From Escherichia phage JS10: DNA of 64,000 bases. The position numbers were made by a program, and so were the translations under genes. Numbering within the stretch: position 1 is the first letter of the stretch; every line of letters starts with the position of its first letter. This document shows positions 24,572 to 39,780 of the stretch, in pieces. Location: the sequence record EU863409; one strand, given 5' to 3'. Below the pieces are notes generated by a model. The model worked only from the letters and a program-made list of their open reading frames with translations, made no database searches and had not been told where the DNA came from.

Positions 24572-24860
24572 ATTTTTTCCAGTCAGAAATCATATGAATC
24601 TCTTGGTCATACGTCAAGAGACTACGAGTTATAATACCCTTACAAGGCCCTGAGATGAACTCGAGGGTGAAGTAAGGAACCTGTTTCATTAATCGGATAC
24701 TAGGAGCGTGGCATCTAAAACGAGAGCCCTTAAAGGGCCCTGACATGAATACATATTCTAATGGATAGAAATAAGCATGCTCAAAGTTTGTAGTAAGGTC
24801 CTCTCTTCGAACCTTACGTGAGAAATAACAGAACTCAAAAAGTTCTTCATCGGTCATCAT
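24564..24860 (-). CDS. hypothetical protein
   Basis: 98-aa ORF with internal duplicated SGP(F/C)KG segment. Confidence 0.45.
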   Translation of the reverse strand: MMTDEELFEFCYFSRKVRREDLTTNFEHAYFYPLEYVFMSGPFKGSRFRCHAPSIRLMKQVPYFTLEFISGPCKGIITRSLLTYDQEIHMISDWKKYV

Positions 24861-25384
24861 TGCATTCCTATCACAAAGAACAGTGGCAGAGGTTTAGAAC
24901 CCTGGCACATAAATTTGTTAATCATTACCTGGTAAGCTTCATAGAACTTATCCATCGATGGAAGGCGCATTGGCTCTTCGATAATAATCAATAATCGAGT
25001 AACTGATAGACCACGATACTTATGGAAGTTATCTTCGTCTAAAAATGAACGCACGGTATCATATACAACAAATCCAGGACCTTCTACTTGAAGGTGTGGT
25101 TGGGCCTTAGAAACCCTTTTTATTATATTACAGATTTCTCGTGAGCGATGCGAAGAACTTGACATAACAATCACATCATTACCCTTGGAAACCCAATCAG
25201 CTGCGAACTGAGCAAGGGCACTTGTTTTACCTGTTTGACGCCCGCCGTCAAGTCGAAGAGTACCAAATTCTTGCATTCTTGAAGTGGGTTCGTACCAGGT
25301 ATATTGGTCTGAGTCTAAACGTTCAATGGCGCGTTCAGCGAAGGCGTGCATTAAGGTTAGATAAATGGGAGTTAAAAATTTCAT
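24857..25384 (-). CDS. small P-loop NTPase-like protein
   Basis: 175 aa; GGRQTGKTSA Walker A and LLIIIEEP Walker B-like. Confidence 0.5.
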   Translation of the reverse strand: MKFLTPIYLTLMHAFAERAIERLDSDQYTWYEPTSRMQEFGTLRLDGGRQTGKTSALAQFAADWVSKGNDVIVMSSSSHRSREICNIIKRVSKAQPHLQVEGPGFVVYDTVRSFLDEDNFHKYRGLSVTRLLIIIEEPMRLPSMDKFYEAYQVMINKFMCQGSKPLPLFFVIGMQ

Positions 25385-25544
25385 AATGGTCTCTTAGTTG
25401 TGGGGCCGTTCCTTGGCACATAATTCATCCATGTATCCGTATGTAAACCCTTTACCGCACTTGGGCTCGACCTTATTACAGGTAGGGAAAGGTCCATCAC
25501 TCAGAGGACGCGACGTTCATGAGGAGAGGGCCGGCTTGCCTTTA

Positions 25545-25844
25545 TTAGAAAGAACCAGAACCTTTAATTGTATTCTGGCGACCTTTATTTTCTAATTCAG
25601 AGTGGTCGATTTCGTATGCTTGGGCTACACCAAAGGCCTTTTTAACTTTAGCTAAAGAGCCTTTAGATGTAACAATATTAAAAGTATTACCTTTAGTAAA
25701 ATCAACCAAATCCACTTGTACGCCCTGTTTACCGAGGCTTGCTACAATAGCATCAACATATTCTTGGTCTAAGGTGCCTTGGACACCTATTTGGAATGCT
25801 TTAGGAGCTTTGGCTTCTGTAATAAATTCTTGATAGGTTTTCAT
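25545..25844 (-). CDS. internal-protein-like capsid-targeted protein
   Basis: N-terminus MKTYQEFITE (capsid targeting sequence with I-x-E protease site); 99 aa. Confidence 0.6.
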   Translation of the reverse strand: MKTYQEFITEAKAPKAFQIGVQGTLDQEYVDAIVASLGKQGVQVDLVDFTKGNTFNIVTSKGSLAKVKKAFGVAQAYEIDHSELENKGRQNTIKGSGSF

Positions 25845-25898
25845 ATTATTCCTTAAGTTGATAGAAGTATTCTATCACGGATTTAATTAAGCGTAAAT
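25845..25898 (-). promoter_or_regulatory. promoter with stem-loop over -10 (PeSL-related)
   Basis: -35 TTTACG, 17-bp spacer, -10 TAGAAT inside hairpin GATAGAA-N3-TTCTATC. Confidence 0.4.
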
Positions 25899-26303
25899 AG
25901 CCTTGCCATAGTGTTTGTACCAGGTAGGGCGTTGTGCAATTTTTTCGTCCAAACGGGCTTGTGAAATAGCGATAGAAGCTTCGTGAGGAACATAATCACC
26001 ACGGAATTCCTGAGGAATATCACTAATGTCCTGGACTGTAGTATCCTTGATATTAAAGCCACGTTTTAAACATTCGGCTATAAGCTCGATTTGACGCTTA
26101 CGTAAAAATTCAAGCTTATCATAAAAGAATGTAACGTGGCCTGTACCAAGGATAAAAGTAGGGCTGATTTTAAAATCACGAACACGTTTACCGTTAGCAA
26201 CATGCTTACGAACTGCACCGAAAACACGTGGTAATTCACGATATTCAGCCATTAAGTGTTGGTCAGCCAATTCAGATACTAAGGTAAGGTTGATACGAGT
26301 CAT
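25887..26303 (-). CDS. denV: endonuclease V (pyrimidine-dimer DNA glycosylase DenV)
   Basis: 138 aa, near-identical to T4 DenV along its length. Confidence 0.92.
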
Positions 26304-26359
26304 TTTTAATCTCCTGTAGTTGATAGGTCTATAGTATCATGCCTACAGGAGAAGTAAAC
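26304..26359 (-). promoter_or_regulatory. PeSL-like promoter-stem-loop cassette (upstream of denV)
   Basis: Same architecture and arms as regB cassette; -35 GTTTAC 26354-26359. Confidence 0.6.
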
Positions 26360-26758
26360 TTATTTGTAAGTTTTCATCCAATTCTTGAACAGAGCTGCAA
26401 CGTCTTTCTCTTTAACGTTCAATTTAACGTCCAGCATTTTGCCACCAGCGGCACGTGTCTGACGAATCTTAGCCGTACCGGTTTCGCCATTCCACTCAAC
26501 ATAATACTGCCCGGTGTTCATAGCGATACCATCGCCATAGTCTTCGTTCTTAGAAGTAGTGAATGCCAACTTCATGGTCTTAGAGACACGGGCCTGCATG
26601 CCTGTCTGCAGAGCGTTACGAACGCGAATAACCTGAGGAGTGGCCTGGGTCAGGTTCTCGTTCAGTTCTTCGGTGAACTCTTCTGATTCAAACATTGCCA
26701 AAAGTTCAGCGGGCGCCGGGATTACAGCTTCGGCGATAAATTCATTGTAAGTTTTCAT
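26360..26758 (-). CDS. internal-protein-like capsid-targeted protein (ipII position)
   Basis: N-terminus MKTYNEFIAE; 132 aa; C-terminus ends WMKTYK-stop, a remnant CTS start. Confidence 0.6.
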   Translation of the reverse strand: MKTYNEFIAEAVIPAPAELLAMFESEEFTEELNENLTQATPQVIRVRNALQTGMQARVSKTMKLAFTTSKNEDYGDGIAMNTGQYYVEWNGETGTAKIRQTRAAGGKMLDVKLNVKEKDVAALFKNWMKTYK

Positions 26759-26799
26759 ATAGGTCCTTTAAAGGTAAATGTGTTTAAGTATAGGCTTTA

Positions 26800-27396
26800 T
26801 TAATTACCACGGGCTGCATTAGCAACGGCGTAAGCGTACTGAATATTAGCGTCTTTAAACGTACCTTTAGAGGTATCTAGCTCTGCCTTAAAGCCGGCTT
26901 TAGTCATAACATCGGCAAATTCTTTACGGAAAGCCATTGTATCAAGACCTTTCCATGCTGATTTATGCTTGGCAAATTCAAGACCAGCGAAGTTGACTGC
27001 TTTAGCCAATTTATTATCAATAGTCCATTTACCTGCTTTAGGCACAAATATCGGACCTTTCTGTTTAGAGAATAGTTTTAAATTCCAGCGACGAAGGTCG
27101 CCGTCGGCTTTAACAAAAGCTGCGTCCAAGTTACTAGCAACAACATCTTGAATATGGCCAAATTTAAGCCCATCAGCTTCAATATTTAGGTCGTTACGCC
27201 AGCGAAGTCCTTCCCAGGCGAAAGCTTTAAAGTCGGAAGCTTTTGTAGCTAAATACCGTTCAATAGGAGCTGTTTTAGCGTCAAAGCCGTTTCCTGGGTT
27301 GTCAACGCCGTTTCCTCGGTAGGTCCACTCATCTTTATTAATGCCTTTGACCTTTCCTGCAGTAGCTTCGGTGATAAATTCTTTATACGTTTTCAT
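26800..27396 (-). CDS. internal-protein-like capsid-targeted protein (ipIII position)
   Basis: N-terminus MKTYKEFITE; 198 aa Lys/Ala-rich. Confidence 0.6.
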   Translation of the reverse strand: MKTYKEFITEATAGKVKGINKDEWTYRGNGVDNPGNGFDAKTAPIERYLATKASDFKAFAWEGLRWRNDLNIEADGLKFGHIQDVVASNLDAAFVKADGDLRRWNLKLFSKQKGPIFVPKAGKWTIDNKLAKAVNFAGLEFAKHKSAWKGLDTMAFRKEFADVMTKAGFKAELDTSKGTFKDANIQYAYAVANAARGN

Positions 27397-27475
27397 ACGG
27401 GTCCTTCAAATGTAAATTTAATTAGTCTGTTCAAGTAACTGTAGATATACTATCACAATTCTAGGAGATGTAAAC
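27397..27475 (-). promoter_or_regulatory. PeSL-like cassette (variant) upstream of internal-protein operon
   Basis: -35 GTTTAC (27470-27475), 17-bp spacer, -10 TAGTAT. Confidence 0.45.
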
Positions 27476-27973: not shown

Positions 27974-27993
27974 ACCTCCTGATTATAGGAGGT
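27974..27993 (-). promoter_or_regulatory. Shine-Dalgarno-sequestering hairpin of gene e
   Basis: Inverted repeat ACCTCCT-GATTAT-AGGAGGT; proximal arm is the AGGAGG SD. Confidence 0.55.
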
Positions 27994-28000
27994 ATTTATA
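27993..28000 (-). promoter_or_regulatory. T4-type late promoter (TATAAATA) for gene e
   Basis: Exact TATAAATA immediately 5' of a CCTCCT-N6-AGGAGG hairpin and the e start codon. Confidence 0.6.
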
Positions 28001-36439: not shown

Positions 36440-36515
36440 TGGTCGAGACAGTAGGGATCGAACCTACGACCTACGGTTTAGAAGACCGTTGCTCTTCCTT
36501 CTGAGCTATGCCTCG
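36440..36515 (-). tRNA. tRNA-Arg (anticodon UCU)
   Basis: 76-nt cloverleaf: anticodon stem ACGGT/ACCGT with loop CTTCTAA, T-arm GTAGG-TTCGATC-CCTAC, encoded CCA; unusual C1-G72 acceptor start. Confidence 0.65.
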
Positions 36516-36519
36516 TATT

Positions 36520-36594
36520 TGGCGGACATGCATGGATTCGAACCATGGACCAATTGATTAACAGTCAACTGCTCTACCACTGAGCTACACATCC
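36520..36594 (-). tRNA. tRNA-Asn (anticodon GUU)
   Basis: 75-nt cloverleaf: D-arm TAGCTCAGTGGTAGAGC, anticodon loop CTGTTAA, T-arm CATGG-TTCGAAT-CCATG, encoded CCA. Confidence 0.75.
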
Positions 36595-36598
36595 AAAT

Positions 36599-36672
36599 TG
36601 GTGGCCCTGGGTGGAATCGAACCACCATCCAGCGATTATGAGTCGCTCGCTTGACCGTCCAGCTACAGGGCC
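36599..36672 (-). tRNA. tRNA-Met/Ile2 (anticodon CAU)
   Basis: 74-nt cloverleaf: acceptor GGCCCTG/CAGGGCC, anticodon stem AGCGA/TCGCT with loop CTCATAA, T-arm GGTGG-TTCGATT-CCACC, encoded CCA. Confidence 0.75.
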
Positions 36673-38424: not shown

Positions 38425-38490
38425 TTTATTCTCCAATCACTCATTTGTTTTGATAGGGCTATAGTATCATCACTAAAGCCCGTTGTAAAC
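38425..38490 (-). promoter_or_regulatory. PeSL-like promoter-stem-loop cassette (covarying stem)
   Basis: core GATAGGGCTATAGTATCA with stem GGGCTATAG / CTAAAGCCC; -35 GTTTAC. Confidence 0.55.
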
Positions 38491-38492
38491 AC

Positions 38493-38786
38493 TTATTTTG
38501 TAATTTCTTTGATTTTAGAAACTACTTTATCTTTGGTAAGACCGGAAAAAGTCTTATATTTTGTAAAGTGGATATCATCACCAAGATTAATATAATATTT
38601 CTTTTTAACCGTATTGAATGCTATACTAACAGGTTTACCATTTACTGTAATAGTAATTTGCTGAGCCTTATCAACATCACCTGAGCCAAAGGCTCTTTTA
38701 ATATCGCTACTAATATCGGCCATAGCCGCTTTGTTAATGGAATACAAATCTGTCGATTCTTTGATAAATTCTTGATAAGTTTTCAT
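38493..38786 (-). CDS. internal-protein-like capsid-targeted protein
   Basis: N-terminus MKTYQEFIKE; 97 aa; downstream of canonical PeSL-like cassette. Confidence 0.6.
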   Translation of the reverse strand: MKTYQEFIKESTDLYSINKAAMADISSDIKRAFGSGDVDKAQQITITVNGKPVSIAFNTVKKKYYINLGDDIHFTKYKTFSGLTKDKVVSKIKEITK

Positions 38787-38855
38787 TTTTTTGTTTCCGT
38801 TAGGTTGGGTTTGTTTTGATAGGTCTATAGTATCATGCCTATAGACCTTGTAAAC
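38787..38855 (-). promoter_or_regulatory. PeSL-like promoter-stem-loop cassette
   Basis: -35 GTTTAC (38850-38855), 17-bp spacer, -10 TACTAT; perfect 10-bp stem 38821-38830 / 38839-38848. Confidence 0.6.
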
Positions 38856-38866
38856 ATCTTTTTAAA

Positions 38867-39780
<914 letters not shown>

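Follow-up and report, generated by a model that had tools for sequence, protein, structure and literature searches.

Five leader-bearing genes at the two internal-protein loci

The 64-kb stretch of Escherichia phage JS10 DNA analysed here (record EU863409; 64,000 nucleotides, hereafter the window) contains five open reading frames (ORFs), all on the minus strand, whose products share the N-terminus MK(T/S)Y(Q/N/K)EF(I/L)xE and have lengths of 99, 132, 198, 97 and 69 residues. The 99-residue gene (orf112 in the related phage JS98) was located at 25545..25844, downstream of denV; it carries the leader MKTYQEFITE↓A, where the arrow marks the predicted cleavage point, and its mature product would comprise 89 residues with an isoelectric point (pI) of 9.0. 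The 132-residue gene (26360..26758), which is the 'hypothetical' orf114 of JS98, stands in the position of T4 ipII, with the leader MKTYNEFIAE↓A and a predicted mature protein of 122 residues (pI 8.2). It is followed in the window by the ipIII orthologue, the 198-residue gene (26800..27396), with the leader MKTYKEFITE↓A and a predicted mature protein of 188 residues (pI 9.6). The two remaining genes are the 97-residue gene (38493..38786; leader MKTYQEFIKE↓S; predicted mature protein of 87 residues, pI 9.6) and the 69-residue gene (38867..39076), with the cleavage site LTE↓A and a predicted mature protein of 59 residues (pI 4.1). The original prediction, made from the DNA letters and their ORFs, had described five ORFs with a shared leader at exactly these coordinates and lengths; it did not mention that the 69-residue ORF uses a GTG start overlapping the stop codon of 57B (GTGA).

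A six-frame scan of the whole window for K[TS]Y.[ED]F returned five matches only, each at residue 2 of one of the five ORFs, and the back-translated DNA pattern RTGAAAWCNTAYNNNGARTTYHTNNNNGAR matched five times in the window versus 0.00 times in 100 dinucleotide-preserving shuffles. Alignment with the T4 internal proteins (IPs) revealed that the window leaders are near-identical to the one carried by IPII and IPIII, MKTYQEFIAE↓A. In T4, amber-suppressor work has attributed the targeting function of the leader to Y4 and F7, and its processing by the prohead protease gp21 to I/L8 and E10 (review PMC9026906). These four positions are all kept in the window leaders and are followed by Ala or Ser; the gp21 motif, (L/I)-x-E at residues 8-10 and then a small residue, is present in 5/5 genes (ITE↓A, IAE↓A, ITE↓A, IKE↓S and LTE↓A, in the order of lengths given above). 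The leader codons vary synonymously among the five genes (ACC/ACT/ACG, TAT/TAC, ATT/ATC) while the leader peptide remains the same, highlighting that the peptide is conserved and not just the DNA. These results are in agreement with the earlier proposal that the leader is the T4 capsid-targeting sequence (CTS) with its (I/L)-x-E site: all the positions critical in T4 match, both IP loci are occupied and JS98 encodes a gp21 of the T4 type.

In the direction of transcription, the genes of the denV region are nudE, e (lysozyme), the 198-aa ORF, the 132-aa ORF, denV, the 99-aa ORF and vs.8, and those of the second region are gene 1, 57A, 57B, the 69-aa ORF, the 97-aa ORF and trna.4. At the matching places, the T4 orders are e-ipIII-ipII-denV and 57B-ipI-trna.4. 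Since the gene order is the same as in T4, the five ORFs occupy both classical IP loci, the 99-aa gene lying just beyond denV, within the same variable segment of its locus. The denV gene itself (endonuclease V; 25887..26303, minus strand) is annotated in JS98 and syntenic with T4; it is a context gene and not an IP.

The first locus shares with the T4 IPII/IPIII locus its position, the near-identical leader and the cleavage motif, and the 198-aa gene appears as a direct IpIII orthologue. It differs from the T4 locus by the absence of IpII, by the presence of an unrelated 132-aa cargo in the ipII place and by an extra Ip7-type gene downstream of denV. The second locus uses the same 57B-trna.4 slot as T4 IPI/IPI*, the inhibitor of GmrSD from E. 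coli CT596, and would obey the same packaged-and-injected logic. However, the T4 IPI leader has 19 residues (MKTFKEF...ITE↓A), whereas the window slot is filled by the unrelated 69- and 97-aa genes, which carry a 10-residue leader and show no similarity to IPI.

Identity of the five cargoes

The 198-aa protein is 86% identical to T4 IPIII over 188 residues of the mature part (BLASTP, E=1e-118), belongs to phrog_5341 'internal virion protein' (E=4e-114) and matches JS10 IpIII exactly. These alignments identify it as the IpIII orthologue, and its cargo is consequently not new. The 99-aa protein was assigned to the Ip7 family by its 48% identity with annotated T2 Ip7 over residues 1-87 of the mature protein (tblastn, E=5e-15); it matches phrog_2667 'internal head protein' (E=5e-43), a label that it also bears in RefSeq, and has relatives in 282 phage records.

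The 132-, 97- and 69-aa proteins are assigned, by their homologues, to small families confined to T4-like phages. The first falls in phrog_15461 (function not annotated) and is represented in 48 phage records, all labelled hypothetical. The 69-aa protein falls in phrog_23867, with 27 phage records, and its gene is unannotated in JS98. The 97-aa protein matches phrog_27873 (E=8e-12) and was found only in JS98, where its gene is unannotated, and in MN04; distant homologues are encoded by Edwardsiella phage PEi20/26 and by Yersinia phage MHG19.

As had been predicted, the cargoes are unrelated past residue 10. The five proteins fall into five different PHROG families, and no BLASTP comparison among the five mature parts was better than E=0.1. 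A possible relatedness of the 99- and 97-aa proteins, suggested by a weak BLASTP match (E=0.1), was not upheld by profile comparison, the three hhalign comparisons between the 132-, 99- and 97-aa family profiles giving probabilities of at most 6% each. Homology of the 132-, 97-, 69- and 99-aa cargoes to T4 IPI* or IPII* was searched for by BLASTP and no match better than E=0.1 was obtained.

The 132-aa protein resembled residues 189-275 of M.HhaI (E=0.02). This match was lost when the family profile was used and a match to flagellin (E=0.018) appeared instead; owing to this replacement, both were taken as chance. The AlphaFold2 (AF2) model of the same protein is poor (pLDDT 55), too poor for a structure search. 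Comparison of the 97- and 99-aa proteins with solved structures by sequence gave none below E=0.01. The AF2 model of the 69-aa protein (pLDDT 84) displays a small beta-alpha-beta-beta-alpha fold after the leader helix, for which Foldseek returned no match below E=0.1 in the PDB. The mature part of this protein (38867-39046) contains 9 Asp+Glu versus 3 Lys+Arg, giving its pI of 4.1, whereas the four other mature proteins, as well as T4 IPI, IPII and IPIII, are basic.

Conservation and exchange of cassettes among relatives

The two ip-locus segments of the window are 98.7-98.8% identical to those of Escherichia phage JS98 (Dhakavirus, Tevenvirinae), the window itself being from a Dhakavirus of the JS98/JS10 type. 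In the JS98 records EF469154 and NC_010105, some 650 bp separating trna.4 from 57B are left without annotation; they contain the 97-aa and 69-aa CTS genes (respectively 1595-1888 and 1968-2177 of the NC_010105-derived segment), with mature parts identical to those of the window. The ratio of non-synonymous to synonymous substitution rates (dN/dS) of the 132-aa gene was 0.025 with respect to Klebsiella phage Marfa, and that of the 69-aa gene was 0.08-0.09 with respect to EcS1 and Gravdalen, with synonymous sites near saturation. Such values (0.03-0.09) indicate that these leader-bearing ORFs are real genes under purifying selection.

The leader is retained across genera. In Marfa, Serratia 4S and Erwinia Cronus, the homologues of the 132-aa protein have kept both the leader and the position between e and denV, and in EcS1, Gravdalen and Merlin the homologues of the 69-aa protein have kept the leader and the overlap with 57B. 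The leaders read MKSYNQFLDE↓S in Serratia 4S, MKTYKEFLAE↓S in Erwinia Cronus, MKTYNEFINE↓A in PEi20 and MKTYKEFLAE↓A in Gravdalen.

In Citrobacter phage Merlin, the homologue of the 69-aa protein (1474-1680 of the segment compared) has a degenerate leader that is one residue shorter, MKFTDFLNE↓A, and adjoins an Ip8-like gene with a canonical leader. This shortened version constitutes a natural experiment on the portion of the CTS that is required.

The homologues of the 97-aa cargo show that its location may change. In PEi20, the leader is present but the gene is found at the denV locus, i.e. the other IP locus. In Yersinia phage MHG19, the homologue (1453-1752 of the segment compared; 32% identity, E=4e-7) is devoid of CTS and lies just upstream of motA, off the IP loci. 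Cargo domains can thus exist without CTS, and the MHG19 protein suggests that the 97-aa-type domain can exist as an ordinary non-packaged protein, leaders being gained or lost.

Cassette content and order differ among Dhakaviruses. In the order of transcription, the denV locus contains IpIII, the 132-aa gene, denV and the Ip7-like gene in the window and in JS98. In MX01 it contains the 132-aa gene, IpIII, IpII, denV and the Ip7-like gene, and AnYang has the same set with a further 119-aa CTS gene; in both phages ipIII follows the 132-aa gene, whereas in the window it comes first. The extra AnYang gene (855-1214 of the segment compared; MKTYQEFITE↓STQRLNEA...), annotated as hypothetical, is inserted between denV and the Ip7-like gene. 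At the 57B locus, the 69- and 97-aa genes of the window and JS98 are replaced by the 69-aa, Ip8-like and Ip9 genes in IME08 and by Ip8 and Ip9 in QL01, sister Dhakaviruses carrying Ip8 and Ip9 at this place. The set had been called 'expanded'; this description is not supported, since sister Dhakaviruses have as many CTS genes or more (five at the denV locus alone in AnYang), and a set of five is therefore not exceptional.

Among the named systems, Ip5, Ip7, Ip8 and Ip9 of T2, RB15, RB32 and K3 are pertinent because the 99-aa protein belongs to the Ip7 family. In T2 and RB15, ip7 is found at the 57B-trna.4 locus; the window member stands beside denV, at the other IP locus. Ip5, Ip7 and Ip9 are named in the RB15 GenBank record Z35082, which presumably was deposited with Repoila et al. 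1994. According to PMC3012670, variable T-even IP loci have been described since Repoila 1994. Arbiol et al. reported more than 30 IP variants by 2007, confined to two highly variable loci, and proposed that early-promoter/stem-loop elements may drive the shuffling (PMC2839356). As these authors described for the T-even IP loci, in a study of the PeSL cassettes of RB49 and phi1 (Arbiol et al. 2010, PMC2839356), the IP genes of the window are separated by early-promoter-like elements, some with short inverted repeats; these elements are analogues and not homologues of the PeSLs, and may take part in recombination. More recently, the IP loci were presented as a hotspot of injected anti-defence proteins (Silas et al. 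2025, PMC12373910). The arrangement found in the window is real but ordinary, having already been described for T-even phages.

Proposed packaging, injection and function

JS98 encodes the prohead protease gp21, which aligns with the T4 gp21 structure (PDB 5JBL) with E=3e-125, and the core proteins gp22, gp67 and gp68. In T4, core binding, cleavage, packaging and injection have been demonstrated with IPIII itself and with fusions of its ten-residue leader to foreign proteins, for the packaging of which this leader alone suffices (PMC3012670; PMC9026906). From these T4 experiments we infer packaging, cleavage, injection and an anti-restriction role for the five window products. The first ten residues of each precursor would act as the CTS and attach it to the gp22 scaffolding core during prohead assembly; gp21 would then cut after Glu10 of (I/L)-x-E, and the mature protein would remain in the head with the DNA and enter the cell with it. 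Being injected with the DNA, it could act before any phage gene expression. The cargoes would behave as independent, exchangeable cassettes bounded by conserved leader DNA and early-promoter/stem-loop elements, which would provide the homology for recombination within and between both IP loci. Each cargo would most likely inactivate one host nuclease recognising modified cytosine, of the type IV kind (GmrSD or McrBC).

The proposed target is based on the IPs already characterised. T4 Ip1, Ip2 and Ip3 inhibit one GmrSD variant each, a different one in each case and without cross-protection (PMC12373910), and IPIII is active in the cytoplasm even without its CTS (PMC9391042). Bas37_0260, a CTS protein encoded at the ipI locus of a T4 relative, blocks McrBC (bioRxiv 2025.11.20.689424); it has the same type of locus and leader as the window genes, and its cargo is unrelated to IPI, IPII and IPIII. 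All four IPs of known function are type IV restriction inhibitors (PMC12373910; bioRxiv 2025.11.20.689424), and diverse CTS proteins serve as defence inhibitors (PMC3012670). Since every characterised IP inhibits a type IV enzyme, our best guess is the same role for the four cargoes other than IpIII, which are considered as candidate type IV restriction inhibitors. The diversified set of injected effectors that had been postulated for the window fits the literature on T-even phages; for these five proteins, the role is proposed by homology or analogy. Taken together, the five genes very probably belong to the T-even IP class, their products being CTS-bearing, cleaved by gp21, packaged and injected, with exchangeable cargoes that would most likely each be directed against one type IV enzyme.

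Several observations weigh against this interpretation. The prohead genes lie outside the window, and their presence was established in JS98 only. No virion proteomic or N-terminal data on these proteins in this phage were found. The 57B-trna.4 locus is without a late promoter directly upstream, the nearest same-strand copy of the T4 late-promoter octamer TATAAATA lying about 3.4 kb upstream. The acidic 69-aa mature protein (pI 4.1) is unlike the basic classical IPs. As for the anti-defence role, none of the five proteins had a significant match in Pfam, NCBIfam or PADLOC and no cargo convincingly matches any solved structure; for this reason, that role is argued from analogy only. Finally, no a-gt was found in JS98 between genes 47 and 55 (20000-55000 examined), and next to uvsX this phage has genes annotated as similar to RB69 orf045c-052c, a set linked to arabinosylated cytosine.

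The modification of the phage DNA bears on which host enzymes would be opposed. Dhakaviruses are listed among the groups with an arabinosylated-cytosine pathway (PMC13326640). Given the arabinosylation set and the lack of a-gt in JS98, the relevant host enzymes may differ from those attacking glucosyl-hydroxymethylcytosine (glucosyl-hmC) DNA. A tentative alternative, which we regard as possible but not as the favoured one, is that the cargoes are injected anti-defence proteins directed against targets other than type IV enzymes, such as glycosylases acting on modified cytosine, other early nucleases or defence sensors. It is in line with the RB69-type arabinosylation genes, and not glucosyltransferases, of JS98 (PMC13326640), with the existence of defence glycosylases against hypermodified DNA and with the absence of any cargo resembling Ip1 or Ip2; on the other hand, every CTS protein characterised so far hits a type IV enzyme and the IpIII orthologue shares 86% identity with a protein proven to inhibit GmrSD. 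It can also be noted that JS98 has retained an IpIII 86% identical to that of T4, though the known target of T4 IpIII cuts glucosyl-hmC phages.

Members of the 132-, 97- and 69-aa families were found in T4-like phages only, none of them in Tequatrovirus; the genera are Dhakavirus, Marfavirus, Kanagawavirus, Kagamiyamavirus, Moonvirus, Roskildevirus and Winklervirus, and Serratia phage 4S is a further carrier. For several of these genera, an arabinosyl-cytosine pathway has been reported in place of glucosyl-hmC. This distribution is compatible with a specialisation of the three families, as injected inhibitors, against enzymes recognising arabinosylated-cytosine DNA, a proposal that we consider unlikely; if true, it would concern a class of targets for which no inhibitor is known from the literature consulted. 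The acidic 59-residue mature protein would then possibly be an atypical member of such a set, acting as a nucleic-acid or substrate mimic.

It is still less likely that the products are packaged but mainly structural, with a function in core or head assembly or in the neutralisation and organisation of the DNA rather than in anti-defence. Mutations in T4 IPIII slow down head assembly and reduce the burst size, each T4 head holds about 360 copies of each IP (PMC9026906), and four of the five window mature proteins are basic (pI 8.2-9.6). The T4 IP genes are, however, dispensable on laboratory strains (PMC9026906), the four IPs of known function inhibit type IV enzymes, and a structural function leaves unexplained the swaps of unrelated cargoes among close relatives as well as the one acidic cargo. 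The idea that the shared N-terminus is a by-product of recombination, its 30 nucleotides serving with the ribosome-binding site and promoter as a DNA linker kept uniform by gene conversion so that some products would be ordinary early cytoplasmic proteins and never packaged, is very improbable: although repeated promoter/stem-loop elements flank cassettes that move between loci and phages, and the MHG19 homologue next to motA is leaderless, synonymous differences separate the five leaders without loss of the peptide, the peptide persists in distant genera where the DNA has diverged and dS is near saturation, and the ten residues of T4 alone package foreign proteins (PMC9026906; PMC3012670).

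With packaged and injected type IV inhibitors as the preferred interpretation, the contribution of the present analysis can be delimited. The phage is published and two of the five genes are already labelled as internal proteins in RefSeq. The gain is in the 132-, 97- and 69-aa genes, hypothetical or omitted in public records, which are re-labelled here as predicted capsid-targeted internal proteins. Their products could reasonably be included in screens against type IV restriction enzymes and other early-acting defences. As a class, injected IPs are the first answer of the phage to host restriction and help to set its host range, which is relevant to the choice of T4-like phages for therapy. 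JS98 and JS10 were isolated for that purpose.

Promoter-like elements and neighbouring features

Elements resembling early promoters were found on the minus strand beside the IP genes. Upstream of ipIII, TTTACA-16-TAGTAT (27447..27474) is a match to the T4-early consensus only. TTTACG-17-TAGAAT (25869..25897) lies upstream of the 99-aa gene and overlaps the end of denV. Between the 132-aa gene and denV, a promoter-like GTTTAC...GATACTAT is flanked by the inverted repeat CTACAGGAGA/TCTCCTGTAG (26294..26368). At the second locus, TTTACA-16-TACTAT is combined with a perfect 10-bp inverted repeat, AGGTCTATAG/CTATAGACCT, between the 69-aa and 97-aa genes (38821..38854), the repeat spanning 38821-38848; a promoter joined to a stem-loop in this manner is the kind of element that borders IP cassettes according to PMC2839356. 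A second copy of this promoter-like element is found at 38461..38489, downstream of the 97-aa gene and upstream of trna.4.

On the same strand, a T4 late-promoter consensus TATAAATA was located upstream of e (27993..28000). It is the sole late site placed for read-through of e, ipIII, the 132-aa gene, denV and the 99-aa gene. As the number of TATAAATA octamers in the window is not above chance, the case for late transcription from this site is positional only.

Upstream of trna.2-trna.4, three adjacent tRNA genes were detected at 36443-36672 on the minus strand (Rfam RF00005, 63-73 bits); they correspond to a reduced T4 tRNA cluster.

At the other side of the denV locus, the vs.8 protein of the window (24857-25384) is strongly unlike that of JS98, in spite of an identity of about 99% between the flanking genes; its upstream region is 98% identical to the SP18/MX01 type. 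The pattern of identity identifies this difference as a local mosaic replacement adjoining the IP locus.

The interval separating vs.8 from the 99-aa gene (25385-25544, minus strand) is a segment of about 160 nucleotides that is rich in G+C, unlike the A+T-rich genome around it. Conservation of its nucleotide sequence extends to 984 phage records from different Tevenvirinae genera, and a 40-nucleotide core (about 25446-25485) recurs in Vequintavirinae with 90-92% identity. The segment had no Rfam match, an RNA fold z-score of -0.3 and no covariation support. The T4 annotation includes it in the 5' end of vs.8. The matching peptide of the window, PVIRSSPSAV, is out of frame with vs.8 and is followed by stop codons, and the lengths of the indels that distinguish the phages are not divisible by three. 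The start annotated for T4 vs.8 may lie too far upstream. In Edwardsiella phage PEi20 (2208-2490 of the segment compared), the G+C-rich element is apparently present as two tandem diverged copies.

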